From contig JAISGC010000055.1 in the NCBI GenBank assembly GCA_031263295.1, positions 1 to 47,889 of the forward strand: a DNA stretch of 47,889 bases, given 5' to 3'. The translations under genes were made by a program, and so were the position numbers. This document shows, piece by piece, positions 6,602 through 44,851 of this stretch. Numbering within the stretch: the stretch's first letter is position 1; each line of letters starts with the position of its first letter. The notes below the pieces were generated by a model. It was not told where the DNA came from and did not search any database. It saw only the letters and a list, made by a program, of their open reading frames with translations. The stretch comes from Rickettsiales bacterium. GTDB taxonomy: Bacteria; Pseudomonadota; Alphaproteobacteria; Rs-D84.

Positions 6602-6689
6602 GGACTAGGATTAGGACTAGGACTGGAAATCGTTATAGTGTCGCGGCGCAATAACAAGTTCCACCTAGTCCTAATCCTAATCCTAGTCC
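6601..6689. repeat. hexad-arm hairpin element H1 (AGGACT/AGGATT units)
   Basis: aggactaggattaggactaggactgg (6601-6625) pairs with ccacctagtcctaatcctaatcctagtcc (6661-6689). The loop contains gcgcaataacaag. It sits exactly between the ppiD-like stop and the ftsY ATG. Confidence 0.9.
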
Positions 6690-6692
6690 CAA

Positions 6693-7469: not shown

Positions 7470-7549
7470 GACTAGGATTAGGACTAGGTGTGACTCGCGA
7501 TTGCGCCACAACGCAATAACAACCTCCACCTAGTCCTAATCCTAGTCCT
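7463..7549. repeat. hexad-arm hairpin element H2
   Basis: ggactaggactaggattaggactaggtg pairs with cacctagtcctaatcctagtcc. Loop carries acgcaataacaac. Lies between convergent ftsY and the CPA2 antiporter gene. Confidence 0.9.
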
Positions 7550-7556
7550 AAAACTC

Positions 7557-9273: not shown

Positions 9274-9281
9274 TAAAAGTT

Positions 9282-9367
9282 TAATGACTAATGACTAATA
9301 ACTAATGTCTAATTTCTAATGAGCGGCAATTAGTAATTAGACATTAGTTATTAGTCATTAGTCATTA
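9282..9367. repeat. heptad-arm hairpin element H5 (TAATGAC units)
   Basis: taatgac taatgac taataac taatgtc taatttc taatgag - cggc - complementary arm aattagtaattagacattagttattagtcattagtcatta. About 32 perfectly paired nt. Located in a divergent promoter region. Confidence 0.9.
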
Positions 9368-9456
9368 AAAAAAAGTCCTTGCGTCAAGTTTGCGGTTTTT
9401 GCTAATCTTGCCCGGACGAGGGAAATTGAGAGATTACCCGATAAGGAGTTTTTATT

Positions 9457-10584
9457 ATGAGTTTGGAGTTTTCGGTTTTCAGACAGGCGCTGGTTTCGGC
9501 GCTCGGGCATATGCAGTCCATAATTGAAAAGCGCAATACCTTGCCGATTCTGTCGAATGTCAAGATCGAGGCCGGGGCCGACCTGGTCCTGACCGCGACG
9601 AATGTCGACCTTGAATTGATAGAGCATGTCGCGGCCGATGTTTTGTCCGGCGGCGCGATAACGATACCGGTCCAGATGTTTTACGACCTTGTGCGGAAAT
9701 TGCCCGAGGACGCGGAAATCAAGGTGAAATTGTCCGACGCGGGCGAGTTTGTCGTCTCGTCGGGGCGCTCGGTCTTCAAGTTCCAGACTATGCCCGCGGA
9801 CAACTTCCCGATGATGGTCGCGCCGACCGCGGTCGTAAAGTTCCAGATGAACACGGACGACCTTGCGCGCCTGATAAACCAGACGAAGTTCGCGATTCCG
9901 GCGGACGATGTGCGCTATCACTTGGGCGGAATATATTTCCATATAGACGATAAAAAACTGACCGCGGTCGCGACCGATTCGCAGAGGCTGGCGCTGTGCT
10001 CGATGCCCGCGCCCGCCGGCGCCGAGGCTATGCCGTCGGTTATTCTGCCGCGCCGCTTGGTCGCGGAGGTCGCGAACCTTCTCGGCGATGTGAAGGTCGA
10101 CGATGTGGTGGTCGAGTTGTCCGATACCAAGGCGCGCTTCACGATTGGCGCGGCGACCTTGACCAGCAAGCTGGTTGACGCGCAGTATCCGAACTATAAA
10201 ATTGTAATTCCGAAGAACAACGAGAAAATCGCGACGATGAACACCAAGCAATTCGTGCATGCGATAGACCTTGTGTCCGCCGCGAGCAGCGACAAGACGA
10301 AGACCGTTCAGCTGGGATTCTCTATGAATAAACTGGTCGCGTCGGTGTCCAGCAAAGACGACGGCAATTCGGTCTCGGGCGCGGAGGAATTGGATATTGA
10401 ATACAACAGCGATGATTCGTTCCAGATTCTGTTCAACCTGCGTTTTTTGCTGGACATAGCGAACCAGGTCGACGGCGGGGACAAAGTGTCCTTGGCAATG
10501 CAGGACGCGCTATCGCCCACGCTGATTCGCTCGGCGGCGAAAGACACGGATTCGATGTTCATCCTGATGCCGATGCGGATTTAA
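9457..10584 (+). CDS. dnaN: DNA polymerase III beta sliding clamp
   Basis: 375 aa. MSLEF..FRQALVSALGHMQSIIEKRNTLPILSNVKIEA.. and the C-terminal ..MFILMPMRI are typical of DnaN. SD TAAGGAG upstream; candidate promoter TTGCGT-18-TAATCT. Confidence 0.95.
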   Translation: MSLEFSVFRQALVSALGHMQSIIEKRNTLPILSNVKIEAGADLVLTATNVDLELIEHVAADVLSGGAITIPVQMFYDLVRKLPEDAEIKVKLSDAGEFVVSSGRSVFKFQTMPADNFPMMVAPTAVVKFQMNTDDLARLINQTKFAIPADDVRYHLGGIYFHIDDKKLTAVATDSQRLALCSMPAPAGAEAMPSVILPRRLVAEVANLLGDVKVDDVVVELSDTKARFTIGAATLTSKLVDAQYPNYKIVIPKNNEKIATMNTKQFVHAIDLVSAASSDKTKTVQLGFSMNKLVASVSSKDDGNSVSGAEELDIEYNSDDSFQILFNLRFLLDIANQVDGGDKVSLAMQDALSPTLIRSAAKDTDSMFILMPMRI

Positions 10585-10590
10585 TGGGAT

Positions 10591-10760
10591 GCCTGGTGGG
10601 GCGAGTTTTGATAAAACTCGCCAATTGCAAATTGGAAGGGGGCGAAGCCCCTCTGACAATTTGCAATTAAATTGAAAGCGATTTTCTTTTTATTTTCTCC
10701 GGGGCTTCGCCCCATCGAAAATAAAAAGGGTGTGTTTTACCAAACCACACCCCACCAGGC
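10591..10760. repeat. composite nested palindromic element bounded by gcctggtgggg / ccccaccaggc
   Basis: Contains hairpins ggcgagtttt-gat-aaaactcgcc, aattgcaaattg..caatttgcaatt, tttttatttt..ggggcttcgcccc..aaaataaaaa and ggtgtg..cacacc. The right half recurs at 44755-44844. Confidence 0.75.
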
Positions 10761-11868
10761 TCGACCAAAAAAACAACTGCCAACTAAAAAAAACTCCGTT
10801 TCCAAAAAGAAAACCGCCGCCAAAAAAACGGCGGTTAAAAAACGCGCAGTCAAAAAAAGCCCCCACCCAAGAGTTGCTACGGCTCGCTCCGCTCGCCAAG
10901 CAACTCTATCCCGCCCCCGCAAGCGGGGGCAGGAAAAGCGTTCGACGCGCCGTAAGATTATTCTCTATTCTCTGTTCTCTGTTCTCTTTTCTCTTAGTCT
11001 CTTATTCTCTTATTCTCTATTTATCCGCCCGGCGTGGACGGGCGGCGAATACATCGTCGCAAGCGGCGCGTCCGTATCGCGCGTTGTCGCGGACCTGAAC
11101 CAGGGCGATATTTTCAAGTTTTTAATCCGCGCGCGCGGCGGCCGGGTGATGGCAGGAACCTATGACATTCCCGAAAGCGCCAGCGTCTGGCGCCTGGCTC
11201 GGATGCTGTCCTTGGGCGAGATCGCGAGCGCATCGATTACTATCCCCGAGGGCCTGACCAGCAAACAAATCGCGCTGCTGCTGGGGGCGGCGCACGAATA
11301 CAAAGACGGCGAATTATTTCCCGACACCTATTCGATTCCAAAGGGTTCCGACCCGGCGCAGGTCATCGATATGATGAAGAAAAAAATGGACCGCGTGCGC
11401 GAGAACTGGGAACGGGCGGGCCGCCGTTTGCCCGCTCCGTTAAAAGACTGGAACGAGGTCATGACGCTCGCGTCGATTGTCCAAAAGGAAACGCCGCGCG
11501 CGTCCGAAATGCCGGTTGTCGCGTCGGTCTATCTGAACCGGCTGCGAAAAAAAATGCGGTTGCAGGCGGACCCGACGGTCGTCTATGCGATAACGGGCGG
11601 GCTCGGCGATATGCAGGGGCGCCCGCTGTTTTCCAAACACTTGCAGACCGCGAGCCCGTATAACACTTACCGCAACGCGGGTCTGCCGCCCGCGCCGATC
11701 GCGAATGTCGGAATGGACGCGATCGCGGCGGTGCTGAATCCGGCGGACACGAATTATTTATACTTCGTCGCAGACGGCACCGGCGGCCATAGTTTCAGCC
11801 GCACCCTCGACGAGCACAACGCCAATCGCAGCGTCTGGCGACGGATTAAAAAAAAGAACAATGAATGA
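10672..11868 (+). CDS. mltG: endolytic murein transglycosylase MltG (YceG); true start uncertain
   Basis: YceG domain: TIPEGLTSKQIA, LFPDTY, ASIVQKETPRASEMPVVASVYLNRL, SPYNTYRNAGLPPAPI. The first ~115 codons of the ORF are made of repeat elements. There is no in-frame ATG before the TM segment, so the start is TTG 10672 or an unidentified alternative. Confidence 0.85.
   Translation: MKAIFFLFSPGLRPIENKKGVFYQTTPHQARPKKQLPTKKNSVSKKKTAAKKTAVKKRAVKKSPHPRVATARSARQATLSRPRKRGQEKRSTRRKIILYSLFSVLFSLSLLFSYSLFIRPAWTGGEYIVASGASVSRVVADLNQGDIFKFLIRARGGRVMAGTYDIPESASVWRLARMLSLGEIASASITIPEGLTSKQIALLLGAAHEYKDGELFPDTYSIPKGSDPAQVIDMMKKKMDRVRENWERAGRRLPAPLKDWNEVMTLASIVQKETPRASEMPVVASVYLNRLRKKMRLQADPTVVYAITGGLGDMQGRPLFSKHLQTASPYNTYRNAGLPPAPIANVGMDAIAAVLNPADTNYLYFVADGTGGHSFSRTLDEHNANRSVWRRIKKKNNE
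10860..10932 (+). repeat. E1 element, copy 2 (in frame inside the mltG 5' ORF)
   Basis: cccccacccaag-agttgc-..ctcgccaa-gcaact-ctatcccgccccc-gcaa-gcgggggcagg, translated as ..SPHPRVATARSARQATLSRPRKRGQ.. Confidence 0.8.
10958..11031 (+). repeat. ATTCTCT/GTTCTCT heptad tract encoding the MltG membrane anchor
   Basis: attctct attctct gttctct gttctct tttctct tagtctc ttattct cttattc is translated ILYSLFSVLFSLSLLFSYSLFI, the only hydrophobic segment ahead of the YceG domain. Confidence 0.8.
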
Positions 11869-11871
11869 CGC

Positions 11872-12020
11872 GCGGTGTTCCCCTCCTTTGGAGGGGTGCC
11901 GCCGAAGGCGGCGGGGTGGTGGCGAAGGTCTGCACTGCCTGCTGCAAGTACCACCCCGTCATTTTTTTGCTTTGCAAAAAAATGCCACCCCTCCAAAGGA
12001 GGGGAACACCACCCCACCGC
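11872..12020. repeat. R1 REP-like inverted repeat (GGTGTTCCCCTCCTTTGGAGGGGTG arms)
   Basis: Left arm gcggtgttcccctcctttggaggggtg, right arm cacccctccaaaggaggggaacacc. Inner ggggtggt..accacccc and the palindrome tttttttgctttgcaaaaaaa. Confidence 0.85.
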
Positions 12021-13136: not shown

Positions 13137-13164
13137 AATTTTTCTCCCTGTTTTTGTTTTTTAT

Positions 13165-13321
13165 GCGATGCCTTCCGCGCGGTGTTCCCCTCCTTTGGAG
13201 GGGTGGGCGGGCAACGGCCGGGGTGGGTCTGGTGAAAGGCAGTGCCGTTGTTCGACACCCCCCCGCCGCCCTGCGGGCGGCACCCCTCCAAAGGAGGGGA
13301 ACACCGCGCGAAAGGCATCGC
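13165..13321. repeat. R1 REP-like inverted repeat, inserted in the leader of the Cys-rich gene
   Basis: gcgatgccttccgcgcggtgttcccctcctttggaggggtg ... cacccctccaaaggaggggaacaccgcgcgaaaggcatcgc. It is absent from the homologous leader at 16754-16833. Confidence 0.85.
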
Positions 13322-13376
13322 ATTGTCGGGAAACTTTGGGGCGCAAGCCCGGCGAAGCGCCGAAGGCGCGAAGACG

Positions 13377-13619: not shown

Positions 13620-13626
13620 GGGATTT

Positions 13627-13729
13627 TTAACGACCAACTACTAACGACTAGTGACTAGTGGCAGCGCGACGGCGGGCACCCCACTAGTCACTAGTCGTTA
13701 GTCACTAGTCGCTAGTAGTTAGTCGTTAA
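13627..13729. repeat. heptad-arm hairpin element H6 (CTAGTGA/CTAACGA units)
   Basis: ttaacgaccaactactaacgactagtgactagtgg - loop - ccactagtcactagtcgttagtcactagtcgctagtagttagtcgttaa. The right arm carries two extra heptads. Confidence 0.85.
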
Positions 13730-13733
13730 AAAA

Positions 13734-14517: not shown

Positions 14518-14632
14518 GGGTTCGCGTGATAATCGCCCATCTCGACGCGTTTTTCACCCACTCGCGTATTCTTATACGCTTCGGGGTGAAAAACGCATCG
14601 ACCTGAACGATTCTGACGCGAACACCTCGCTG
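14518..14632. repeat. D element, ~115-nt rod-like imperfect palindrome, copy 1
   Basis: Reverse-complement match to 42787-42900 along its whole length, with compensatory changes in two internal stems. Confidence 0.85.
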
Positions 14633-18150: not shown

Positions 18151-19149
18151 ATGAACAAAATATTTGCGGTGTTGGGCGGGGTCGGGGCGCTATGGTTCGG
18201 GCGAGACTTGTTGCTACCCATAATAACGGCGGTGTTTTTGTGGTATCTGACCATCGCCATCGGCTCTTACTATCGGCGCATCCTTAAAATAGGATGGCTG
18301 TCAAACGCGGCGGCGGGCGCGTCCTTGCTCGGCGTCGTCTGGGGATTCATCGAGCTGATTCGCCCGATGCTGTGGGACCTCTATAAACAGGCGCCGCAGA
18401 TTGCCGAAGGCGGCAAGCATCTTATCGCCGAGCTCTCCGAAATCGTCGGGACCGAGATTTCCTTCGCGGGCCTGCCGACATTACAGGAATCGATTATGGC
18501 CGCGGGCAACTCCTTGGCCTCGGGCGGCGCGGTTCTGGCCATGATAATAATCTATATGATTTTCATTTTCATAGAACAGGGTTCGTTCCCGAAAAAACTC
18601 CGCGCATTGTTCCCGCAGAATAAGCAGTTTGGAAAGGCGAGCTTCATACTGCACGCTATTGATTCCCAGATGAAAAAATATCTCGGCGTCAAGACCTTCG
18701 TGTCGCTGCTGCAAGGCTTCGCGTTTTATCTGTGCCTGGCGGTAATCGGGGTGCCGTTCGCAGCTCTATGGGGTTTCGGGCAGTTCCTGCTGAACTATAT
18801 TCCGACATTCGGCTCCATCGCGGCTACAACTCTGCCGATGCTCTATTCGTTCGCGATAAACGGCGACATAACCGATGTGATTCTTATCGGAATCTCGGGC
18901 GCGATTGTGAACTTGATATTCGGAAATATTCTGGACCCGAAGCTGACGGGCAAATCCTTGAACCTGTCGCCGCTGGCGATACTGGTCAGCCTGATATTCT
19001 GGGGGATGCTGTGGGGCAGCCTGGGGATGTTCTTCTCGGTTCCGATTTTGGTCGGCATCTATGTCGCGGCCGCCCAGTTCGAATGCACGCGCTGGATAGC
19101 AGTTCTGTTGTCCGCGGACGGACAGATACCGGATAAGAATGAAGAGTAG
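18151..19149 (+). CDS. AI-2E family (PerM/UPF0118) transporter
   Basis: Polytopic. Conserved tail ..NYIPTFGSIAATTLP..ILDPKLTGKSLNLSPLAILVSLIFWGMLWGSLGMFFSVPI. The TAG stop lies in the H7 arm. Confidence 0.8.
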   Translation: MNKIFAVLGGVGALWFGRDLLLPIITAVFLWYLTIAIGSYYRRILKIGWLSNAAAGASLLGVVWGFIELIRPMLWDLYKQAPQIAEGGKHLIAELSEIVGTEISFAGLPTLQESIMAAGNSLASGGAVLAMIIIYMIFIFIEQGSFPKKLRALFPQNKQFGKASFILHAIDSQMKKYLGVKTFVSLLQGFAFYLCLAVIGVPFAALWGFGQFLLNYIPTFGSIAATTLPMLYSFAINGDITDVILIGISGAIVNLIFGNILDPKLTGKSLNLSPLAILVSLIFWGMLWGSLGMFFSVPILVGIYVAAAQFECTRWIAVLLSADGQIPDKNEE

Positions 19150-19267
19150 AGAATAAGAGAAACGCAAACGCTTCGCGTTTGCAGAGAATAAGAGAATAGA
19201 ATTTGCTATCGCGCAATAACTTTATTTCAAGCTCAATTCTCTTATTCTCTCATTCTCTTATTCTCTA
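19146..19267 (+). repeat. heptad-arm element H7 (AGAGAAT units), non-coding copy
   Basis: agagaataagagaa-[cgcaaacgcttcgcgtttgc]-agagaataagagaataga - loop with gcgcaataac - attctcttattctctcattctcttattctct. Confidence 0.9.
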
Positions 19268-20817: not shown

Positions 20818-20912
20818 AAGGACTAGGATTAGGACTAGGACTAGGTGGAGCCCGTTGTTGCGCCGAAGCGCGATAACAAGCCACACCTAGTCCTAGTCCT
20901 AATCCTAGTCCT
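20818..20912. repeat. hexad-arm hairpin element H3
   Basis: aaggactaggattaggactaggactaggtgg pairs with ccacacctagtcctagtcctaatcctagtcct. Loop carries gcgcgataacaag. Confidence 0.9.
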
Positions 20913-20917
20913 GCATT

Positions 20918-21520
20918 TTAGAACGCATACCTTGCGCCGAGGGTGAGCGTCATGTCGGTATAGTCGAACGCGGCGCCGGATTTCGCCTTGGTGTCGACGC
21001 TCGTCAGGCGCAGCCCGAGATCCGCGGTCCATTTTTCATTGACCGAGTATGACGCGCCGATTGCGCCGGCCCAAGCGAACGAGCCCTCGATTTTCGGATC
21101 GATCTTTTGGCCGAAGGCCTTGACCGAATAAGACGGCATCGCGTATCCGACGCCGAGTCCGACGAACGGCTTGACCTTCCAGTCTTTCGCGCCGAAGTCG
21201 TTATAAAGATGTATCATCGCCAGCGACTGGCCCAATGTGGTCGTCGCGCCGTTTTGTTTTTTGCTGCCGGTCAGGTAATCGAACGACAGCTCGCCGCGAA
21301 CGCTCGACGACAAAAGCCCGTCGGAGGCGCGGGTAAATCCGACGAACGCGCCCGCGCCCATCGAGTTTATGTTCAGGTCCTTGCTGCCGTGATTGCCGTC
21401 TATGGACGCGACGCCGTATCCGAGACGCGCGCCGGCATAGCCCTGTTTTTCAGGAGCAGCATACGCCGCCGTTGACAGCATAACAGCCGCCAGCGACGGC
21501 AGCGCCAAGTAATGTTTCAT
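20918..21520 (-). CDS. small beta-barrel outer-membrane protein
   Basis: Start taken at ATG 21520 (AAAGGA SD; MKHYLALPSLAAVMLSTAAYA). Ends ..LTLGARYAF. Confidence 0.75.
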   Translation of the reverse strand: MKHYLALPSLAAVMLSTAAYAAPEKQGYAGARLGYGVASIDGNHGSKDLNINSMGAGAFVGFTRASDGLLSSSVRGELSFDYLTGSKKQNGATTTLGQSLAMIHLYNDFGAKDWKVKPFVGLGVGYAMPSYSVKAFGQKIDPKIEGSFAWAGAIGASYSVNEKWTADLGLRLTSVDTKAKSGAAFDYTDMTLTLGARYAF

Positions 21521-21656
21521 GATATATCCTTTGTTATATTGTTGAGAAAAAGGAATGTTTGCCTTTTTCATTGAGGATTATAGCAACTGGATTTTAGGTT
21601 GGCAACAAAAATAAACGCTTTTTATCGCCATCGATTTATGATAAAATAATCGCGAG

Positions 21657-23605: not shown

Positions 23606-23700
23606 GAAAGTTCAATTTGCAAAGTGCAAAGTTCAATTGGATTTTATGTTCGCGTAGCGAACGCATAAATTGAACTTTGCACTTTGATAATTGCACTTTT
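23606..23700. repeat. heptad-arm hairpin element H12 (TGCACTT/TTGAACT units)
   Basis: gaaagttcaatttgcaaagtgcaaagttcaat - [tatgttcgcgtagcgaacgcata] - attgaactttgcactttgataattgcacttt. The same units form the Slt signal peptide at 36202-36238. Confidence 0.85.
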
Positions 23701-23751: not shown

Positions 23752-24648
23752 ATGAAAGCAATGGTCATTGAAAAAAAGAAAAAGCGCGGGTGGCTGTCCG
23801 AATGGGTTCACACCATTTTCTGGGCGGGCCTCATCGCCATAGCCTTCCGCTCCATTTTATTGGAGCCGTTCAATATTCCGTCCGGCTCGATGATTCCGAC
23901 GCTCGCGGTCGGCGATCACTTGTTCATCACGAAGTGGAGCTATGGTTATTCGCGCTTTTCGTTTCCGTTCGGATCGTGGAATATTTTCGGCGGGCGATTC
24001 TTCCAATTCGGCCAACCAAAGCGCGGCGACATCATCGTATTCCGCAAGCCCGACGACACCATCGAATATGTCAAGCGCCTGATTGGTATGCCGGGCGAGA
24101 CCATTCAGATGAAGGCCGGGCGTCTTTTCATCAACGGCGTTATGGTCATGCGCGAAAATCCGCGGCGATACATTATCGCGAATATTTCCGAGGAATATAA
24201 AGATTCGTATCAGTTCGCCGACCTTGTGATTCGCCGCGGCGCGGTTTATAAAGACAATGCGCCCGTCGACTTCGACTGGACGATAGAATACAAGGATCGC
24301 GGGCTGTGCCGCCGCGCGCCGAGCGAATGCATAGTCGAGGAAGGAATCGAATACGACGAGATTCTACCCGATGGCCGCGTGCATAAAATCGTCGAGATTT
24401 CCGATATGGATTTGCTCGATAACACGCCGCCGTTCTTGGTCCCCGACGGGCACTATTTTATGATGGGCGACGACCGCGACCGGTCGGCCGACAGCCGCGT
24501 GGATATGCTGGGGCCCATCCCGCGCGATAATTTATTGGGCCGCGTTTGGACGATATTTTATTCGCACAATTATTATTCGCCGCTTTTGTGGGTCTGGGAC
24601 TGGGTCTGGAAAATGCGTTGGGATCGGTTCGGATTGTCGCCGAGATGA
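23752..24648 (+). CDS. lepB: signal peptidase I
   Basis: SGSMIPTL, GDHLF, RGDIIVF, VKRLIGMPGE and GDDRDRSADSR boxes. Start taken at ATG 23752 (MKAMVIEKKKK..). Confidence 0.95.
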   Translation: MKAMVIEKKKKRGWLSEWVHTIFWAGLIAIAFRSILLEPFNIPSGSMIPTLAVGDHLFITKWSYGYSRFSFPFGSWNIFGGRFFQFGQPKRGDIIVFRKPDDTIEYVKRLIGMPGETIQMKAGRLFINGVMVMRENPRRYIIANISEEYKDSYQFADLVIRRGAVYKDNAPVDFDWTIEYKDRGLCRRAPSECIVEEGIEYDEILPDGRVHKIVEISDMDLLDNTPPFLVPDGHYFMMGDDRDRSADSRVDMLGPIPRDNLLGRVWTIFYSHNYYSPLLWVWDWVWKMRWDRFGLSPR

Positions 24649-25262
24649 AAAAATTAAACTATGATTTTAAGAAGCCGGAACTGCTCGAACTCGCGCTGAC
24701 GCAATCGGGCGCGAACGCGCGCGCGAACAACGAACGCTTGGAGTTCCTGGGCGACCGGGTTCTCGGGCTCGCGGTCGCGGACCTTCTCTATAATATGTAT
24801 CCGGGCGAGACCGAGGGCGAATTGGCGCGGCGCCAGGCCGCATTGATTTCGGCCAAAACTCTGGCGCCGATTGCGACGGGGCTCGGGCTCAAAATCAAGC
24901 ACGGGCATATGACCGGCGGCAAGATGGAGAATGTTCTGGCCGATGCGGTGGAATCGGTCATAGCGGCGGTCTTTTTGGACGGCGGATGGGCGGCCGCGAA
25001 AAAGTTCGTCGACGGGATTTGGAATGAAATCGCCGCCGCCGATAGCGCCGCGCCGAAAGACCCGAAGACAAAATTGCAGGAAATGGCCCAGCATTCGGGC
25101 GACGGCAAATTGCCGGAATACGAGTTTTTAGAGCCGAGAAGAAAGCAGTTCGTCGTGCGCGTTTCCGTGGTCGGAAAATCGGCCGAGGGCATCGGCGCGT
25201 CGAAAAAATCGGCGACAATCGCCGCAGCCGAAGCGTTGCTTAAAAAATTATCTGATAAATAA
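24645..25262 (+). CDS. rnc: ribonuclease III
   Basis: NERLEFLGDRVLGLAVADLLY signature plus a C-terminal dsRBD. ATG 24645 overlaps the lepB TGA (ATGA). Confidence 0.95.
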   Translation: MKKLNYDFKKPELLELALTQSGANARANNERLEFLGDRVLGLAVADLLYNMYPGETEGELARRQAALISAKTLAPIATGLGLKIKHGHMTGGKMENVLADAVESVIAAVFLDGGWAAAKKFVDGIWNEIAAADSAAPKDPKTKLQEMAQHSGDGKLPEYEFLEPRRKQFVVRVSVVGKSAEGIGASKKSATIAAAEALLKKLSDK

Positions 25263-26128: not shown

Positions 26129-26806
26129 TCAGAAACTAATCCGCAATGATGCCGACACATTGTGCGACACAGGCGTGAAGTTTTTAACGGCGTCGAGCTC
26201 GTTGGGCAGCCAGCGGATGAATCTGTATGCGAGCCCCAGCGCCAATGAGCGATTGATTTCGACCGACACGCCGCCGATTAAATTATACGCGATGGGGGAA
26301 TATTTTGTTTTATCTGCGCCGACCCACTCAATTTCGCCCGCGCCGACGCCGAAGCCGACGAACGGGACGAACGGGTTGGTCTTGAACATCTGATATTCCG
26401 GGGACAATTTCGCGTCGAATATAAAGTTCGCGAATCCCCAGTGCCCGTCGCCGCGAATGTCGCCGTAATCCTCGCGCAGATTCAGATAGCTCGCCTCGAC
26501 CCGGAACGACCGCGCCAGCCGCAGCCCGACCGCAGCCGAAAAGCCGTCCATTGAATCGGCCTTCATTCCGCCCGCCGCATCCGCGAAATGCATATTCCAT
26601 CCGCCCTCGATATAGAATCTCTTCAAGGGCTCGGCCCCGGCCTGATAATCCTCCGGCTCGCCGTCGCGCGCGACGACATACTGGACATCGGCTTTGGCGG
26701 CAAAGCCGACAAAGCAAGAGAATAAGAGAATAAGAGAATAAGAGAATGGAGCGAAACGCAACCGCATCGCTTTAATTTTTTGCAAAAACATTGTAATGAA
26801 CTCCAT
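26129..26806 (-). CDS. beta-barrel outer-membrane protein (tandem paralog 1)
   Basis: MEFITMFLQKIKAMRLRFAPFSYSLILLFSCFVGFAAKA signal, ends ..SASLRISF. ATG and h-region lie in the arms of element H8. Confidence 0.75.
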   Translation of the reverse strand: MEFITMFLQKIKAMRLRFAPFSYSLILLFSCFVGFAAKADVQYVVARDGEPEDYQAGAEPLKRFYIEGGWNMHFADAAGGMKADSMDGFSAAVGLRLARSFRVEASYLNLREDYGDIRGDGHWGFANFIFDAKLSPEYQMFKTNPFVPFVGFGVGAGEIEWVGADKTKYSPIAYNLIGGVSVEINRSLALGLAYRFIRWLPNELDAVKNFTPVSHNVSASLRISF

Positions 26807-26853
26807 TCTCTTATTCTCTGCAAATGCGAAGCATTTGCGTTCTCTTATTCTCT
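26717..26853 (-). repeat. heptad-arm element H8 (AGAGAAT units) spanning the 5' end of the OMP gene
   Basis: On mRNA: AGAGAAUAAGAGAAUGGAG pairs perfectly (19 bp) with CUCCAUUCUCUUAUUCUCU. Side hairpin GCAAAUGCUUCGCAUUUGC. Confidence 0.9.
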
Positions 26854-26856
26854 AAA

Positions 26857-27627
26857 TTAAAAACTGCTCCTCCACGACAAGGACGCGCCGAGCAAGCCGA
26901 AGGTATTGCGGCCGTCCTCGAATCCGGCGGGGCCGGTCATAAACTCGTATTTCGCGGAAAGGTCGATCGCGTTCGTCTCGGTCATCAGGAACGAAAATCC
27001 CGCCGCCGCGCGGCCGCCCGCGATAAAGCCGGAAAAGCCCGTCGCCGCGAAATCCGCGTATCCGCCCGCCGCTCCTATGCCGATGAACGGCACGACCCGG
27101 CGGCGATACATAATATCGCCGCGCATTCTGTATCTGCGGGCCAGGTCGAAATAAAGCATCGCGTCGCCGCCGTCGATGTTCGCCGTGCCGCTGCCCGCGC
27201 TCGGGCTATCGGTCCAACGCAAGTCCTGGTGCCACAGGGCCAGTTCGCCGCGGGCCCATGACGAAAAGTTCGCGCCGAGGGCGAAGCGCTCGAAAAATCC
27301 CCAGTCGTATTCGACGCCCTGCTTGATGCCGAAGTTCGCGCCGCCGCCAAGCCGCACATAGAAATCGGTCGGAATAAATACATCCTGATCCGTCTCGACC
27401 GGGCCCTTGTCATAGACCGCATTGCCAAGGCTTCCCGCGGCCGCGGGCTTTTTCGCGCGCACCGCGATATAGTCCAACCCGCGCGCCGTCTCGCTGGTGA
27501 AAGCATCGTAATTTGCCGCGCCTGCGGCGCCGCAAAGAGAGAATAAGAGAATAAGAGAATAAGAGAATGGGGCCCGACGCAGCCGCAACGCTTTAATTTT
27601 TAACAAAAACAATTTAATGATTTCCAT
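26857..27627 (-). CDS. beta-barrel outer-membrane protein (tandem paralog 2)
   Basis: MEIIKLFLLKIKALRLRRAPFSYSLILLFSLCGAAGA signal, ends ..LSWRSSF. The only in-frame ATG lies in the H9 arm. Confidence 0.75.
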   Translation of the reverse strand: MEIIKLFLLKIKALRLRRAPFSYSLILLFSLCGAAGAANYDAFTSETARGLDYIAVRAKKPAAAGSLGNAVYDKGPVETDQDVFIPTDFYVRLGGGANFGIKQGVEYDWGFFERFALGANFSSWARGELALWHQDLRWTDSPSAGSGTANIDGGDAMLYFDLARRYRMRGDIMYRRRVVPFIGIGAAGGYADFAATGFSGFIAGGRAAAGFSFLMTETNAIDLSAKYEFMTGPAGFEDGRNTFGLLGASLSWRSSF

Positions 27628-27674
27628 TATCTTATTCTCTGCGAACGCGAAGCGTTCGCATTCTCTTATTCTCT
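27536..27674 (-). repeat. heptad-arm element H9 (AGAGAAT units) spanning the 5' end of the OMP gene
   Basis: AGAGAAUAAGAUAAUGG pairs with CCAUUCUCUUAUUCUCU (16/17). Side hairpin GCGAACGCUUCGCGUUCGC. Confidence 0.9.
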
Positions 27675-27681
27675 AACTTTG

Positions 27682-27710
27682 TTGCATTCTAGCACGAAAA
27701 TCTTTATAAT
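27682..27710 (+). promoter_or_regulatory. promoter TTGCAT-17-TATAAT, 6 nt from the lpxI ATG (leaderless candidate)
   Basis: gTTGCATtctagcacgaaaatcttTATAATtgcaatATG. Confidence 0.6.
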
Positions 27711-27716
27711 TGCAAT

Positions 27717-33578: not shown

Positions 33579-35197
<1,619 letters not shown>

Positions 35198-35377
35198 TTC
35201 TTTTTTATCGATTCTCCGTTCTCTGTTATTTGTTCTCTTTCTCATAAAAAGGTCCCTCCAAATCTGAGGGATGACCGGGGAGTTCTAAAATCAAATATGA
35301 AAAATGACCCCGCAGGCCTTCGGGTTTCCCCTGTTTCATAGCCAGCGGCTCCCCGGCCGAAGCGGGGGCATTGCGCA
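35198..35377 (-). promoter_or_regulatory. candidate riboswitch-like leader, motif copy A
   Basis: Minus strand: GGCCGGGGAGCCGCUGG ... GAACUCCCCGG (helix 35349-35356 / 35275-35282), then CCCUC-agauuug-GAGGG + U5. Related to 42116-42189. Confidence 0.4.
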
Positions 35378-36180: not shown

Positions 36181-37908
36181 ATGAAAAAACTTTTAACGAT
36201 TTTGATTGCACTTTGCACTTTGCAAATTGAACTTTGCGCGGCCGAGCCGTTGCCCACGATTTTGTCGGAGAACGACGCGGCGAATTACGCCAAGATTTTC
36301 TCGCTGCAAGACGCTGGCAAAATATCGGCGGCGGCGAAACTTGAAAAGGAACTCGAAAGCGACATCCTGATGGGCGAGGTTTTGTATCAAAGATATATGT
36401 CGAAAAATTACGCCTCCAAGGGTGTCGAGGTCGCCGAGTGGATGGAGAAATATTATAACCATCCGGGCGCGGAAACTATGTTCAAGCTGTCGATGCGGAA
36501 AAAAGTCTTGGCGCGCGAGGCGGCGCTGCCGACTATGGCGAGCGCGAAATACGACGGCGGCGCCTATTCCGAATCATGGACCACGCGGAAATATTCCGGC
36601 TCGACCGGCCGCGAAATCGGGCGATTCCAGGCGAACCTGAAACGGCGGAATCTCAAAACCTGCGCGACTATTTTGGAAAACAAAGGCGTCAAAACGAATG
36701 TGTCATGGACGGACTACGGGCGGCTGGCGGGGCGGCTCGCCTTCACTCTTTATAATGGCGGCGAGATGGAAGAGGCGACGAAATGGGGCGCGGTCGCGGC
36801 CGAACGCAACAGCGAGATTGGCCTGTGGACCATGGGTTTGTTGAGTTTTAAGAACGCGGACTTCGCGGCGGCGGAAAAATATTTCGCGGCGATGTTGGAG
36901 TTGGAGCACATCAATATGAACCGCAAGGTCGAGGCCGCATTCTGGGCGGGCCGTTCCGCGGACGAGGCCGACGACGGGCGCGCGGCGCGCAAACACTGGC
37001 GCTATGCGATGCAGAGGCCCGCGAGTTTTTACGGCGCTATGTCGGCGGCGGCGCTCGGGCGCGAGCCGGACTATGAGTTTTACGAAGATGTTATTTCGAG
37101 AGACGATATCGCCAATCTGATGAAGACGAAATACGGGCTGATTGCATTGGCCCTTTTGCAGGCCGGTCAGAACGAGCGGGCCGAGGGGCATCTGCGATAC
37201 TTGATTACGGACCGCGCGTCGGACGATTTGCTGCACGCGGTGCACGCGCTCGCGACCAGTGAGGAATTGCCGCGGACGGCGCTCGCGGTCGCGCCCATTA
37301 TAAAGGAGCGCGGGATTTTGGAAATCGACAGCAATGTGATCTTGTCGGCGCAGTTTCCGCTGCCGCAATGGGAGCCGCGCGGCGGCTGGGAAATAGACCG
37401 CGCGCTCTTGTTCGCAATCGCACGCCAGGAATCGCGATTTAAGACGAACGCGAAATCGCATGCGGGCGCGACGGGTCTTCTACAACTGATGCCGAAGACC
37501 GCAAAACTGACCGCGGTCAAAAGCGGAATCAAAATGAACTCGCTCGACCTGACCAACCCGGAGGACTCGATGTTCCTGGGCCAGCAGCATGTGCTCGATC
37601 TGTTCGCGCTTGAAAATGTCGACAACAATATTATAAAAATGCTGGTGTCATATAACGCGGGCAACGGGAACCTTCGCAAGTTCGAGCGGCGCTTCGAGAC
37701 GGACGATCCCCTGCTTTACATCGAAAGTTTCCACCTGCCCGAGACTCGCGGTTATATAAAAATCGTGATGTCGAACCTGTGGCTTTATCGCGCGCGTTTG
37801 GGCCAGCCGATGAGCAATCTGAACGATTTGGTTCACGGCCGCTGGCCGCGATACTCGGCGCATGATGACTACGCGAACCGGCGCAGCGAGGAAAAGAATA
37901 TAAATTAG
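36181..37908 (+). CDS. slt: soluble lytic murein transglycosylase (Slt70-like)
   Basis: Superhelical N-domain plus the SLT catalytic motif ..AIARQESRFKTNAKSHAGATGLLQLMPKTA.. The signal peptide MKKLLTILIALCTLQIELCAA is encoded by TGCACTT-type heptads. The TAG stop is in the H4 arm. Confidence 0.9.
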   Translation: MKKLLTILIALCTLQIELCAAEPLPTILSENDAANYAKIFSLQDAGKISAAAKLEKELESDILMGEVLYQRYMSKNYASKGVEVAEWMEKYYNHPGAETMFKLSMRKKVLAREAALPTMASAKYDGGAYSESWTTRKYSGSTGREIGRFQANLKRRNLKTCATILENKGVKTNVSWTDYGRLAGRLAFTLYNGGEMEEATKWGAVAAERNSEIGLWTMGLLSFKNADFAAAEKYFAAMLELEHINMNRKVEAAFWAGRSADEADDGRAARKHWRYAMQRPASFYGAMSAAALGREPDYEFYEDVISRDDIANLMKTKYGLIALALLQAGQNERAEGHLRYLITDRASDDLLHAVHALATSEELPRTALAVAPIIKERGILEIDSNVILSAQFPLPQWEPRGGWEIDRALLFAIARQESRFKTNAKSHAGATGLLQLMPKTAKLTAVKSGIKMNSLDLTNPEDSMFLGQQHVLDLFALENVDNNIIKMLVSYNAGNGNLRKFERRFETDDPLLYIESFHLPETRGYIKIVMSNLWLYRARLGQPMSNLNDLVHGRWPRYSAHDDYANRRSEEKNIN

Positions 37909-37996
37909 GACTAGGATTAGGACTAGGACTGGCATTCGTTATAGCGCTACAACGCAACAACAAACTTCACCTAGTCCTGATCCTAGTCCTGGTCCT
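37904..37996. repeat. hexad-arm hairpin element H4
   Basis: attaggactaggattaggactaggactgg pairs with cacctagtcctgatcctagtcctggtcc. Loop carries acgcaacaacaaa. The rnhB ATG follows 3 nt after the arm. Confidence 0.9.
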
Positions 37997-37999
37997 AAT

Positions 38000-38645: not shown

Positions 38646-38837
38646 AAACCAAAACAAACCCCGAAGGGGTTTGTCATTCCCGCGCAGGCGGGAATAGGGC
38701 TTTCAACCTTATAACAACAGACTTGTTTCACATAATAATGTAAATGTGAAAGCAAGTAGTGACTGAATGTAAGGTTTAGAGCCCTATTCCCGCCTGCGCG
38801 GGAATGACAAAAAATCCTTTCAGGATTTTTTGTTTTG
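38646..38837. repeat. GTCATTCCCGCGCAGGCGGGAAT-family composite palindromic element
   Basis: aaaccaaaac-[aaaccccgaaggggttt]-gtcattcccgcgcaggcgggaatagggct ... agccctattcccgcctgcgcgggaatgac-[aaaaaatcctttcaggatttttt]-gttttg. Confidence 0.8.
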
Positions 38838-42786: not shown

Positions 42787-42900
42787 CAGCGAGGAGTTCG
42801 CGTCAGAATCGTTCAGGTCGATGCGCTTTCCGCCCCGAAGTGTATATCAATACACGAGTGGGCGGAAAACGCGTCGAGATGGGCGATTATCACGCGAACC
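42787..42900. repeat. D element, copy 2 (inverted relative to copy 1)
   Basis: The reverse complement aligns with 14518-14632. Stem pairs gttttccgccc/ggggcggaaagc here versus gtttttcaccc/ggggtgaaaaac there. Confidence 0.85.
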
Positions 42901-42907
42901 TTATAAA

Positions 42908-43108
42908 TTACGCCAATTTAAGATTGACGGCGGACTGACGACCCTTCTCTTCGGCGACATCGAACTCGACTGCCTGGTTGTCCGCCAAGGTCGACAGGCC
43001 CGCGGCTTGCAGCGCCGAGATGTGGACGAAAATGTCCTTGTTGCCGGTTTCCGGTTTAATGAATCCGAACGCCTTTTTCGCGTCGAACCATTTTACATTG
43101 CCTTTCAT
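42908..43108 (-). CDS. cspA: cold-shock protein CspA family
   Basis: MKGNVKWFDAKKAFGFIKPETGNKDIFVHISAL.. with RNP1/RNP2-like motifs. Start taken at ATG 43108. Long 5' UTR likely. Confidence 0.95.
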   Translation of the reverse strand: MKGNVKWFDAKKAFGFIKPETGNKDIFVHISALQAAGLSTLADNQAVEFDVAEEKGRQSAVNLKLA

Positions 43109-43384
43109 AATTATACCTTTGTTCTGTGTTGCCCCGAACGCAACCATTGCGGGCGGGCGGCGGATTTGCCCTGATACTCTTAAAAAAATCTGGCTTCTCA
43201 AAAGGGAGAGTTTTATAAAAAAGTAGCGATTGAATCAAACCAACCTGCGGTCATTATACAGGATGGAACGGCGGAATGCAAGGGGAAGAAAGCAATACTT
43301 GCGTTTTGAGGTAATTTATCAGTAAAATTAGGAATATTTATAAGATTTAATTGTAAATCATAAAAGTCAAAGGCATCATTCTCT

Positions 43385-44101
43385 ATGGAATCAGAAATAA
43401 TTTGGATTACAGTTGGCGTTATCGTTATGGCCTTTGTTTTCGCGAGCCTGATGTATATAACGCAACGCGAAAATACGCGCGCTCAGGAATTGTTGGAGTC
43501 CGTCACCACGGCAGAACGCGGCAACTGCTCGGAAAGAGATTTGGTATTGAAGCTACTAAAATCTGGAATACCGGCCGGGGCAATTTTTCACGACCTGTAT
43601 ATCAAAAAGTCGCATGGCTTTTCGCAAATAGACCTTGTTGTCGCAACAAAAGTCGGCATAATTGTATTTGAGGTAAAGGATTATAGCGGTTGGATTTTCG
43701 GCAGAGGCGATCAAAATAACTGGACGCAAGTTCTAGATTACGGGCGAGAAAAACACCGATTCTATAATCCAATAATGCAAAACAGCAAACACATTGCAGA
43801 ATTAAGAAGGCAGCTTTGGCGTGAGAAGGCGCCGTTTTATTCAATCGTGGTATTTTATGGAAATTGCGAATTACGCGATATAAGTTTTGTCCCTAACGGA
43901 ACATTCATAACCAAGGATTATCGAGTTTTAGATGCCATAAATGAAATCATTGAAAACAATAAGCCCGCCAACTATACGGACAAGCGCGAAGTTGTGCGTG
44001 TGTTGCGCGAAGCCGTTAAAAACGGCGACAATGCGGAAACGAAAGATCAGCATATAGAAAATGTCCGCGATATGTTGGGGAAAGACAGGGTGTTTGATTA
44101 G
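43385..44101 (+). CDS. membrane-anchored NERD (nuclease-related domain) protein
   Basis: N-terminal TM, then ..HDLYIKKSHGFSQIDLVVATKVGIIVFEVKDYSGWIFG..NWTQV..FYNPIMQNSKHIAELR.. matches the NERD pattern (from memory). The gene is AT-rich. Confidence 0.75.
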   Translation: MESEIIWITVGVIVMAFVFASLMYITQRENTRAQELLESVTTAERGNCSERDLVLKLLKSGIPAGAIFHDLYIKKSHGFSQIDLVVATKVGIIVFEVKDYSGWIFGRGDQNNWTQVLDYGREKHRFYNPIMQNSKHIAELRRQLWREKAPFYSIVVFYGNCELRDISFVPNGTFITKDYRVLDAINEIIENNKPANYTDKREVVRVLREAVKNGDNAETKDQHIENVRDMLGKDRVFD

Positions 44102-44568
44102 ACATTTTCTTTCTGCTCGCCAAGTAATGCTGCAACCAGCAGAATCAGCCAGACAAGCGGAGCCCAGAACAGCAACAGATTTAACCAAAATATTTTCTTT
44201 CCATTTTTATTATTACGAGCAGCTAACGAAGGCGCGAACAATATCAACAGAAAAATTGCTGCCCCCAATAATATAAGTAAATATATTCCAATATCCTCTG
44301 CGGTAATGTTAGAATTATATGAATTGTCCACATACGAATGCAAAGAAGTTCTTATAACAAACCCATCTCCTTTTATGCTTCTAACTTTCACCCATTCACC
44401 GACATAGTTTTCAACAAGGACTTTTTCATGTCTATTTAATTTTCCGACAATATTGCAATGCGTTCCCGCGCAGGAACGAATGTTTAAGACTTCGACATTT
44501 ACGATTGTGGCGGCAGTTGCGGACCTGACGATGCACAAGCAAAAAAATATAAAAAGTAATTTTTTCAT
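44098..44568 (-). CDS. SH3b domain - superinfection-immunity (Imm)-like membrane protein
   Basis: Signal/anchor, then SH3_3-like VLNIRSCAGTHCNIVGKLNRHEKVLVENYVGEWVKVRS..GFV. C-terminal FAPSLAARNNKNGKKIFWLNLLLFWAPLVWLILLVAAL resembles the Imm_superinfect motif (from memory). Confidence 0.6.
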   Translation of the reverse strand: MKKLLFIFFCLCIVRSATAATIVNVEVLNIRSCAGTHCNIVGKLNRHEKVLVENYVGEWVKVRSIKGDGFVIRTSLHSYVDNSYNSNITAEDIGIYLLILLGAAIFLLILFAPSLAARNNKNGKKIFWLNLLLFWAPLVWLILLVAALLGEQKENV

Positions 44569-44613
44569 TTTTTATCCGCGGCTTGCCGCCCGAAGCGGCG
44601 GAGCCGCGAAGGG

Positions 44614-44700
44614 TGGTGGCTTTGGCGGGGCTCGAACCCGCACGGTCGCAATGACCAAGGGATTTTAAGTCCCCAGCGTCTACCATTCCGCCACAAAGCC
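44614..44700 (-). tRNA. tRNA-Leu (anticodon UAA), CCA encoded
   Basis: GGCTTTG-TG-GCG-GAATGGTAGA-CGC-T-GGGGA-CTTAAAA-TCCCT-[long variable arm GGTC-ATTGC-GACC]-GCGGG-TTCGAGC-CCCGC-CAAAGCC-A-CCA. Full cloverleaf, class II. Confidence 0.9.
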
Positions 44701-44709
44701 TGTTCTTAT

Positions 44710-44738
44710 ATTTTACGCGATTTTTTTATTATTTGCAA
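44710..44738 (-). promoter_or_regulatory. promoter TTGCAA-17-TAAAAT for tRNA-Leu
   Basis: Minus strand aTTGCAAataataaaaaaatcgcgTAAAATataagaacagGGCTTTG. Confidence 0.5.
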
Positions 44739-44754
44739 TAAAGCGATGGACAAT

Positions 44755-44844
44755 TATTTTTTATTTTCTCCGGGCCTTGGGTCTGCGACCCCGGCCCATC
44801 GAAAATAAAAAAGGTGTGTTTCATCGAAACACACCCCACCAGGC
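44755..44844. repeat. right-half copy of the composite element seen at 10591-10760
   Basis: attttttattttctccgggcc..ggcccatcgaaaataaaaaaggtgtgtttcatcgaaacacaccccaccaggc. Confidence 0.75.
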
Positions 44845-44851
44845 TCTGGAA

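Follow-up and report, generated by a model that had tools for sequence, protein, structure and literature searches.

The window, as the whole stretch analysed here is called, is the complete 47,889-bp contig JAISGC010000055.1 of a metagenome-assembled genome (MAG) labelled "Rickettsiales bacterium", and the host has a GC content of about 55%. On its minus strand lie two tandem genes, gene 1 for an outer-membrane protein (OMP) and gene 2 for a predicted exported protein, the 5' ends of which are formed by copies of one palindromic repeat, referred to below as the element. A third intact copy is intergenic, and two derived copies, which were absent from the initial annotation of this DNA, lie in other genes. 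The positions are as follows (ORF, open reading frame).

26129..26806, minus strand: gene 1, OMP beta-barrel protein of 225 aa (PF13505, E = 1e-8)
26857..27627, minus strand: gene 2, exported protein (predicted from sequence) of 256 aa, MDR1027217.1
26717..26853, minus strand: element copy 1 (subfamily A, 137 nt), 5' end of gene 1
26853..26840, 26838..26820 and 26819..26805, minus strand: outer 5' arm, side hairpin and inner 5' arm of copy 1
26806..26804, 26804..26748 and 26747..26717, minus strand: annotated ATG, loop and 3' arm (four TATTCTCT units) of copy 1
27538..27674, minus strand: element copy 2 (subfamily A, 137 nt), 5' end of gene 2
27674..27661, 27659..27641 and 27640..27626, minus strand: outer arm, side hairpin and inner arm of copy 2
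27627..27625, 27625..27569 and 27568..27538, minus strand: annotated ATG, loop and 3' arm of copy 2
19148..19266, plus strand: element copy 3 (subfamily A, 119 nt), intergenic, no ATG
about 35140-35255, minus strand: decayed subfamily-B copy, N-terminus of a 285-aa ORF (34388..35245)
10958..11018, plus strand: one-arm degenerate TATTCTCT/TGTTCTC array inside the MltG (YceG) gene (10672..11868)

The minus strand of both genic loci reads, in order, two AGAGAATA units, an 8-bp GC hairpin with a TTC loop, two further units ending ..AGA(G/T)AATGG, an A/U-rich loop and then CCATTCTCT, the pyrimidine arm totalling four TATTCTCT units. The repeat unit had been described as a heptad, AGAGAAT, and is instead the octamer AGAGAATA, with a period of 8 according to TRF. 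The reported complementarity of the arms was reproduced: those of gene 1, AGAGAATAAGAGAATGGAG and CTCCATTCTCTTATTCTCT, are 100% complementary over 19 nt across a spacer of 49 nt (inverted-repeat search, pair I23), and 16 of the 17 positions of the inner arms of gene 2 are paired, the single mismatch being due to AGATAAT. As an RNA the element is predicted by RNAfold to form a three-way junction with an outer stem of 14 bp, made of the first two 5' units and the final two of the 3' arm, a side hairpin of 8 bp and an inner stem of 17-20 bp; the fold energies of copies 1, 2 and 3 are -66.8, -65.7 and -50.8 kcal/mol (z = -7.4, -6.9 and -5.7). The side hairpins GCAAATGC-TTC-GCATTTGC and GCGAACGC-TTC-GCGTTCGC, and GCAAACGC-TTC-GCGTTTGC in the third copy, are all perfect 8-bp stems that differ from one another at two base pairs with both sides changed each time, which bears out the compensatory differences noted before. 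When the three window copies are aligned, the boundaries are sharp, from AGAGAATA directly behind a T to a terminal ATTCTCT, and the outer arms AGAGAATAAGAGAA and TTCTCTTATTCTCT are terminal inverted repeats at the exact element ends. Across copies the length ranges from about 109 to 137 nt. A 15-mer with up to two mismatches gives 18 matches in the window against 0.03 expected, and the pattern including the side hairpin 3 against 0.

Copy 3, which had been recognised as a non-coding copy without an ATG, starts inside the TAG stop codon of an AI-2E transporter gene and is followed by a TAA and then by the start (19278) of a gene for a YdcF/DUF218 membrane protein. It has ATA as its junction codon and a loop of unrelated sequence, and it contains an in-frame stop and a spacing of 41 nt to the 3' arm, which is not a multiple of 3. 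The genic DNA copies, in the window and in the related sequences introduced below, carry in 5/5 cases an ATG at the junction, with the 3' arm a whole number of codons away (60, 60, 42, 42 and 45 nt), and all six intact DNA copies have exactly 4 + 4 units.

Gene 1 scores 35.9 bits against PF13505 (cut-off 28.7), and its product is identical to the public protein P0001, a 'porin family protein' with the JGI name 'opacity protein-like'. Gene 2 has no Pfam, NCBIfam or PDB match. Over the C-terminal half its profile weakly resembles that of the gene 1 family (hhalign probability 45%, E = 2e-4), the protein ends in ..SWRSSF, and a single-sequence AlphaFold model of its mature part (pLDDT 30.6) was unusable. 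The designation of both as OMP genes therefore holds for gene 1 and is probable for gene 2.

Public annotation starts both proteins at the 5'-arm ATG. A basic n-region, ..KIKA(M/L)RLR(F/R), comes from the loop, and the 3' arm encodes (A)PFSYSLILLFS in both genes, and the ORF translations thus agree with the proposed order of start codon, n-region and hydrophobic core along the element. Further in-frame starts lie within gene 1 at codon 6 (ATG, 26791) and codon 14 (ATG, 26767). The arm ATG of gene 2 is its only in-frame ATG, as had been stated, and in-frame TTG codons at positions 6, 8 and 14 (27588) add to the possible starts. No in-frame ATG, GTG or TTG lies between the element and the mature N-terminus DVQYVV of gene 1, the next being M72, and none lies between the element and the mature region of gene 2. 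The DNA outside the element gives just 7-8 uncharged residues of a 20-residue h/c stretch, and so few are too short for the h-region of a signal peptide. Because of these two observations, the start codon, the n-region and most of the h-region are attributed to the element, which, judging from the sequence, must supply both the translation start and the core of the export signal whichever of the starts within it is used.

The state of these genes before the element arrived can be read from a related MAG (L001), in which LpxI, the gene 2 orthologue, the gene 1 orthologue and a tRNA methyltransferase follow each other in the same order. The gene 1 orthologue (P0002) begins with MKKYCLLFLTSCLFSLPALA followed by EVKY, the gene 2 orthologue (9279-9977) with MKKIFVFFSLLIFCAGSAGA followed by KYDAF, and both carry short MKK-type signal peptides and no element. 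The octamer array was not found in L001, L002 or L003, even at 18/24 matches. The mature N-termini align across the cleavage site, AKA-DVQY with ALA-EVKY (DVQYVV with EVKYIV) and GAA-NYDAF with AGA-KYDAF. The predicted cleavage in gene 1 is AKA-DVQ, and in gene 2 either AGA-A or GAA-N. As the relative has both genes with plain MKK leaders and lacks the element, the element appears to have replaced the ancestral leaders of both genes.

Directly behind the 3' arm, the codons of the c-region form a GC-rich hairpin in each gene.

26687..26710, minus strand: GC-rich hairpin in the gene 1 c-region codons, directly 3' of the element (-14.3 kcal/mol)
27512..27536, minus strand: GC-rich hairpin in the gene 2 c-region codons, TTTGCGGCGCC-GCA-GGCGCGGCAAA (-16.1 kcal/mol)

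The gene 2 orthologue of L001 has a hairpin TTTGCGCCGGC-AGC-GCCGGCGCAAA there (-24.4 kcal/mol). These hairpins were considered as part of the element and rejected as such, since the element-free orthologues of L001 also have a hairpin in this place; on this comparison they are ancestral features of genes 1 and 2. Between the genes and their relatives (L001 about 9311-9344 and 10037-10070) the inner pairs differ, for example GCGCC/GGCGC and CCGGC/GCCGG, and energies of -14 to -24 kcal/mol rank among the lowest few percent of values for coding sequence. A crude comparison across the genome between signal-peptide genes and the others for such a c-region hairpin was not significant (p = 0.09).

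The same leader is found on other proteins. A profile of the two 42-residue N-termini was used in an exhaustive search of 1.84 billion representative proteins and matched genes 1 and 2 together with four proteins that carry the module at residue 1.

P0008: 137 aa, DUF2155, N-terminus MELVKALLLKIKAMRFCCAVFSYSLILLFS..
P0010: 304 aa, no known type, N-terminus MKLIKALLQKIKMQRLLRATLFSYSLILLFS..
P0007 and P0009: small Cys-rich proteins, N-terminus MKKRIRELENKRMDFEIKGKR.RTAAFSYSLILLFS..

A homology search with P0009 added P0012 to P0017, which have the same head. In total at least nine intact module proteins belong to the MAG, i.e. at least seven beyond genes 1 and 2, eight being assigned to it by LBL46_ locus tag or MDR1027xxx accession and gene 1 by its contig; three further module proteins come from a JGI (sister) sample, 3300042612. 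In the exhaustive search, carriers of the module were confined to this MAG and the one JGI sample, and a word-index protein search with the 42-aa module returned no candidates. The locus tags reach at least LBL46_05080, which would imply roughly 1000 genes if tags step by 5. The mature parts of the carriers (the DUF2155 protein, LBL46_02075 and the Cys-rich family) are unrelated. Within the Cys-rich family the module is about 94% identical, and the mature parts are about 40-60% identical or less. The claim that a dispersed repeat provides the translation start and the export signal is thus upheld on four grounds, namely the lack of a downstream start, the small number of uncharged residues (7-8) encoded outside the element, the element-free leaders of the relative and the presence of the module on unrelated proteins.

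DNA of a second subfamily, B, was available from L018 (one copy) and L019 (two copies). Its 5' arm consists of four contiguous units without the side hairpin, a Shine-Dalgarno (SD) sequence and ATG (GGGAG, 6-7 nt, ATG) lie just upstream of the arm, and the T in GAATTAGAG eliminates the in-frame TAA; given the upstream ATG and the loss of the stop, the purine arm is taken to be translated, as KKRIRELENKR. The hairpin of subfamily B reaches up to 36 bp and begins about 6 nt into the coding region. A T/A pair in L018 was considered as a compensatory change and dropped, as a C in the second L019 copy breaks the pair and the site is a third codon position (Leu).

The decayed copy in the window belongs to this subfamily and aligns to the L018 module at its head and tail. 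It has the order SD (GGAGGG), ATG, decayed purine arm (RKRTNNRERRI), loop, decayed pyrimidine arm and CGEAVAA-PEY. Only a 14-bp stem is left, and the fold is not significant (z = -1.9). By its sequence the copy still encodes a signal peptide after losing most of the stem, an argument against the stem being the feature that selection preserves in coding copies. In the second derived copy, residues 96-116 of MltG, ILYSLFSVLFSLSLLFSYSLF, are encoded by the pyrimidine array and precede the YceG domain (residues 129-386); position and hydrophobicity suggest that the array encodes the membrane anchor. No canonical start codon lies between this array and the YceG domain.

The capacity of the element to be read as protein lies in the composition of its arms. 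(TATTCTCT)n is stop-free and encodes one peptide, (YSLILLFS)n, in all three frames. Every frame of (AGAGAATA)n contains a TAA, and apart from this stop its reading is rich in Arg, Lys, Glu and Asn. A palindrome that starts with the purine arm therefore places a charged stretch before a hydrophobic one, which is the layout of a signal peptide. Six N-termini were scored (genes 1 and 2 and P0007-P0010) and combine a net charge of +3 to +6 with an uncharged run of 20-21 residues behind it; from charge, hydrophobicity and the alignment with orthologues, FSYSLILLFS of the 3' arm is predicted to form the h-region behind a positive n-region. Other tandem-armed palindromes of the window that were compared with it contain stops in all frames on both strands (TAATGAC, ACTAGTG) or in one frame per strand (AGGACT), and they are intergenic.

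The constraint on the element is seen in the arms. Between copies 1 and 2 the arms differ at 1/60 nt and the loop at 12/57 nt (Fisher p = 8e-4), and 4/16 positions of the side-hairpin stems differ, all in a compensatory manner. Uniformity of the arms in codons that are free to vary indicates a force at the level of the nucleic acid and not selection on the peptide. This could be concerted evolution or propagation of the palindrome, or an RNA function, DNA-level and RNA-level causes being inseparable in these data.

The explanation that we favour, with a probability of roughly two in three, is that a lineage-specific palindromic repeat has been incorporated at the 5' ends of genes whose products are exported, replacing the leaders of OMP genes, and that the RNA fold is a by-product. 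The repeat would be about 110-137 nt long, with arms of four AGAGAATA and four TATTCTCT units and an additional GC side hairpin in subfamily A. It resembles the palindromic elements of Rickettsia and the miniature transposable elements with inverted repeats known as MITEs, and would have entered the 5' ends of such genes and, in both OMP genes, displaced an ancestral leader made up of SD, ATG, MKK and a hydrophobic stretch. It would have become fused in frame to the c-region and cleavage site that each gene already possessed, and would itself encode the start codon, the basic n-region (in the loop) and, in the 3' arm, about 10 residues of a hydrophobic stretch of roughly 20. The RNA three-way junction would mainly be the consequence of palindromic DNA kept uniform and not a dedicated sensor, and the stem would probably lower or modulate expression, or invite cleavage by RNase III, as a side effect. 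Spread could have taken place by transposition or by gene conversion.

Several points weigh against this explanation. The DNA flanking the three window copies has no direct repeat in common that could be a target-site duplication, and no ORF of the window matched a transposase or RAYT domain. The intact DNA copies number six, and three of them were found through the protein search, which biases the set towards genic, in-frame copies. The Cys-rich family may have obtained the module by gene duplication and not by independent acquisition, and a region of roughly 100 nt upstream is conserved in this family too. The strong conservation of the arms could reflect a selected RNA function. Finally, the identification of gene 2 as an OMP is weakly supported.

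The element has no family match in Rfam. A scan of a genome collection that does not include the source MAG, with the 5' architecture as query, found only plain AGAGAATA microsatellite arrays in unrelated taxa, and the side-hairpin and inner-stem patterns, verified on the window, had 0 matches in a metagenome collection that does not include the source samples. The plain arrays have 5-12 units and occur in Rikenella, Photorhabdus, Proteus, Algoriphagus and others (L004-L017); in Algoriphagus (L012) the AGAGAATA array adjoins arrays of CTCCAATCT-like units across a GC hairpin.

Where translation begins bears directly on the meaning of the stem. The annotated AUG of both genes has a probability of being unpaired of 0.00 at 20, 30, 37 and 42 C, the loop start codons are 0.2-0.8 unpaired and the upstream AUG of subfamily B about 0.9. 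No SD was found before the arm AUG (duplex -2.9 kcal/mol), and in gene 1 a GGAG lies 9 nt before codon 6. In-frame loop starts are present in four subfamily-A genes, at codon 14 as ATG in gene 1, TTG in gene 2 and ATG in P0008 and at codon 13 as ATG in P0010, and these accessible starts sit in the 45-48-nt loop. A start at codon 14 would give a canonical signal peptide of 25-26 residues, for example MRLRFAPFSYSLILLFSCFVGFAAKA. We infer that initiation in subfamily A is at the loop start (codon 14) with a likelihood of about 55%, against about 35% for the arm AUG, and that subfamily B would initiate at the exposed SD-AUG just upstream of the stem.

Transcription is expected to include the entire structure, given the position of a candidate promoter upstream of gene 2 and the start of copy 1 only 4 nt past the gene 2 stop codon.

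27686..27715, minus strand: sigma-70-like promoter, TTGCAA-18-TAGAAT with a TG before the -10 hexamer (consensus match only)

This promoter would put the transcription start about 5 nt upstream of copy 2. In the mRNA the element may reduce expression, shield the transcript at its 5' end or be a target of RNase III, the gene for which (rnc) is in the window at 24546-25262; copy 1 offers a perfect inner stem of 20 bp and an outer stem of 14 bp. The outer 5' arm of copy 2 also creates an upstream ORF of 9 codons (27661..27632, minus strand, ATG CGA ACG CTT CGC GTT CGC AGA GAA TAA), which is out of frame with gene 2 and crosses the side hairpin. On the plus strand, at 26819-26839 and 27640-27660, the side hairpin followed by TTCTCTTATT scores as similar to an intrinsic terminator; such sites could stop antisense transcription or read-through towards lpxI. 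A TATAAT 5-7 nt upstream of an ATG that lacks an SD occurs at 27717 (lpxI), 20918..21571 (minus strand) and 17390, which suggests leaderless mRNAs for several genes.

An alternative, proposed with the initial annotation, is that the arm ATG is the true start and that the 17-20-bp stem is a selected throttle or thermosensor which limits the synthesis of envelope proteins. It would explain why the annotated AUG is fully paired in the predicted ensemble, why the arms are far better conserved than the loops and why pairing in the side hairpin is kept through two-sided changes; it also fits a junction ATG shared by all genic copies and lacking in the intergenic one, and the public annotation, which starts both genes at this ATG. 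A temperature response is not supported by the predicted folding, as pairing is unchanged between 20 and 42 C. Real RNA thermometers use weak, meltable stems, and a nested stem of about -66 kcal/mol is far beyond the known ones and would nearly abolish initiation and not tune it. The arm AUG has no SD, accessible starts exist in the loop, a start codon at codon 14 being conserved across four subfamily-A genes (codon 13 in P0010), and the predicted start of subfamily B is an exposed AUG that precedes the stem. The decayed copy kept its signal peptide and lost its stem, and conserved arms and covarying hairpins are equally expected of a repeat maintained at the DNA level, such as REP/RAYT elements or the inverted repeats of MITEs. 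This makes a selected throttle unlikely, albeit the most viable of the alternatives.

Also unlikely, and rated slightly lower, is a more far-reaching version of the events, in which the element is an actively spreading, self-contained secretion cassette. Its about 110-137 nt would comprise a ribosome entry site, a start codon and a Sec signal peptide and would overwrite the 5' ends of envelope and secreted genes, while the conserved hairpin would place at least nine genes under shared post-transcriptional control. Such control, if it is real, might act via RNase III, a helicase or a repeat-binding protein, and a mobile repeat within coding sequence would then have given rise to a regulon.

It is improbable that the element is primarily an RNA structure for the processing or stability of mRNA, similar to REP/BIME or Correia elements, acting as a protective stem-loop or an RNase III site with its coding use incidental. 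The candidate promoter would make copy 2 a 5'-terminal stem-loop, copies 1 and 3 are intercistronic, the perfect helices of at least 20 bp are of the type cleaved by RNase III in Correia elements (PMC10969869), and an RNase III gene is at hand in the same window (24546-25262). Cleavage in the inner stem would, however, sever the coding sequence from every candidate start, the decayed copy shows that the stem may be lost, and the restriction to genes for exported and membrane proteins in a fixed orientation is left unexplained.

The resemblance to the opa genes of Neisseria raises the question of a contingency locus, in which the non-triplet TATTCTCT array would switch surface proteins by slipped-strand mispairing. 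Four perfect repeats of an 8-nt unit do lie in the leader codons of an Opa-like OMP, every frame of the array is open and hydrophobic, as in the CTCTT repeats of opa (PMC3960869), and many carriers are surface or secreted proteins. Yet 6/6 intact copies have 4 + 4 units and 5/5 genic copies are in frame, the array is also found in MltG, a housekeeping cell-wall enzyme judged an unlikely target of on/off switching, and opa genes have no counterpart of the palindromic partner arm. Four units are few for high-frequency slippage. Phase variation by this array is accordingly considered very improbable.

Least credible, and largely refuted, is an annotation artefact in which the element is a non-coding 5' untranslated region and ORFs seem to run through it only for want of stops in the pyrimidine arm: the 3' arm is indeed open in all frames, such that downstream ORFs extend into it, and copy 3 is truly non-coding, but no in-frame start precedes the conserved mature N-termini of genes 1 and 2, the 7-8 uncharged residues before the cleavage site would be all that is left without the arm, and whole-codon spacing and the junction ATG are found in genic copies only.

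The surroundings of the two genes are those of a housekeeping region, with lpxI, a tRNA U5-methyltransferase gene, rnc, lepB, dnaN, mltG, ftsH, ftsY, aspS and tolQ/R as neighbours in the window. At least four further families of palindromes with arms of 6-7-nt tandem repeats are present, at a density of about one element per 4 kb.

6595-6696, 7463-7550, 20819-20912 and 37906-37997: palindromes with AGGACT/AGGATT arms
9280-9369: palindrome with TAATGAC arms
13624-13732: palindrome with ACTAGTG/ACGACTA arms
23607-23699: palindrome with AAAGTGC arms
L018 834-903 and 3475-3548, L019 4144-4237: tandem-armed palindromes outside the window
11874-12010, 13163-13323 and 38670-38811; L018 1182-1306 and 2772-2914; L019 2543-2735 and 3789-3841: dispersed palindromes without tandem arms
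14520-14623 and 42796-42899: two copies of a palindrome of about 104 nt, in opposite orientation

The tandem-armed palindromes nearly fill the intergenic gaps in which they lie, and ORFs end or start within a few nt of the arms. AGGACT/AGTCCT units contain a stop in one frame, and AAAGTGC units are stop-free on both strands. The palindromes without tandem arms form two dispersed families, GGTGTTCCCCTCCTTTGGAGGGGTG... and TTTGTCATTCCCGCGCAGGCGGGAATAGGGC..., of which the GGTGTTCCCCTCCTTTGGAGGGGTG... family is found about 40-60 nt upstream of every subfamily-B gene examined, within a 5' region of about 100 nt that is conserved among the paralogues. The 50-nt arms of the palindrome of about 104 nt are 76-78% complementary, and each copy overlaps the region predicted as the start of an ORF. 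An AT-rich island at about 43000-45000, with 42-44% GC against about 55% elsewhere, carries NERD-domain and SH3_3 proteins and adjoins a tRNA gene (44617-44700, minus strand); by its composition and content it may be horizontally acquired DNA.

Among the several palindromic families, the frame-independent layout of charged and hydrophobic residues accounts for the tolerance of this one inside genes, and for the limitation of this tolerance to the 5' ends of genes for exported proteins. The element thereby offers a clean natural example of the path from a non-coding palindromic repeat to a functional part of a protein, and the relative with MKK leaders shows that working signal peptides were replaced and not that new genes were created. 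The annotation of start codons and the prediction of signal peptides need care in genomes so rich in repeats. A conserved leader on secreted proteins that diverge quickly could also mark the secretome of this uncultured lineage.

Selfish repeats that have been built into proteins are striking, yet they have precedents in the fusions of Rickettsia palindromic elements (RPEs; PMC10969869) and of a MITE of Yersinia (PMC2229807). As summarised in PMC10969869 and PMC2229807, RPEs are found as in-frame insertions in ORFs of the genome (Ogata et al. 2000). Compared by description, RPEs and the element are both dispersed palindromes of 100-150 bp with the potential to form long stem-loops in a genome with a Rickettsiales label, and both have intergenic copies as well as in-frame fusions that make the repeat peptide part of a protein. 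For the element, this dispersal comprises one intergenic, two intact genic and two derived genic copies in the window and at least seven module proteins on other contigs of the MAG. According to these summaries RPEs insert within ORFs, whereas the element forms the N-terminus with start codon and signal peptide. Its arms are tandem octamers with a strict purine/pyrimidine asymmetry, and its host, at about 55% GC, is not a Rickettsia.

The closest precedent, by analogy, is the 168-bp MITE YPAL/RU-2 of Yersinia, for which a hydrophobic ORF and in-frame fusions with a predicted signal-peptide or transmembrane motif are described (Delihas 2007, PMC2229807); the signal peptide of YPO1552 is given there as partly formed by the MITE. 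The two systems share, as far as that description goes, a palindromic repeat whose hydrophobic ORF is fused in frame to serve as a predicted signal peptide. The element differs in being used systematically, in at least nine genes of a genome of roughly 1000 and in decayed copies besides, in having replaced working leaders of conserved OMP genes while also donating the start codon, and in a hydrophobic reading that is independent of frame; there is no evidence of sequence homology to YPAL.

In the opa genes of Neisseria, CTCTT repeats in the region of the leader peptide cause phase variation by slippage (PMC3960869). Common to opa and the element is a pyrimidine-rich, non-triplet tandem repeat in the leader region of a gene for an Opa-like beta-barrel OMP. 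By contrast, the number of units is 4 in every intact copy of the element, its array forms an arm of a palindrome, and no frame-shifted copies were seen.

Correia/NEMIS, ERIC and REP/BIME sequences are co-transcribed hairpins of 5' untranslated or intercistronic regions that can be cut by RNase III or RNase E or can mask translation signals (PMC10969869). Like them, the element is a long hairpin-forming repeat, expected to be transcribed with the neighbouring genes. They act from untranslated regions, whereas the hairpin described here spans the initiation region and the first 20-40 codons, which means that cleavage would destroy the message. What sets the element apart from all of these systems is its scale, with at least nine genes in one small genome, the replacement of working OMP leaders, the donation of the start codon and the frame-independent octamer arms.

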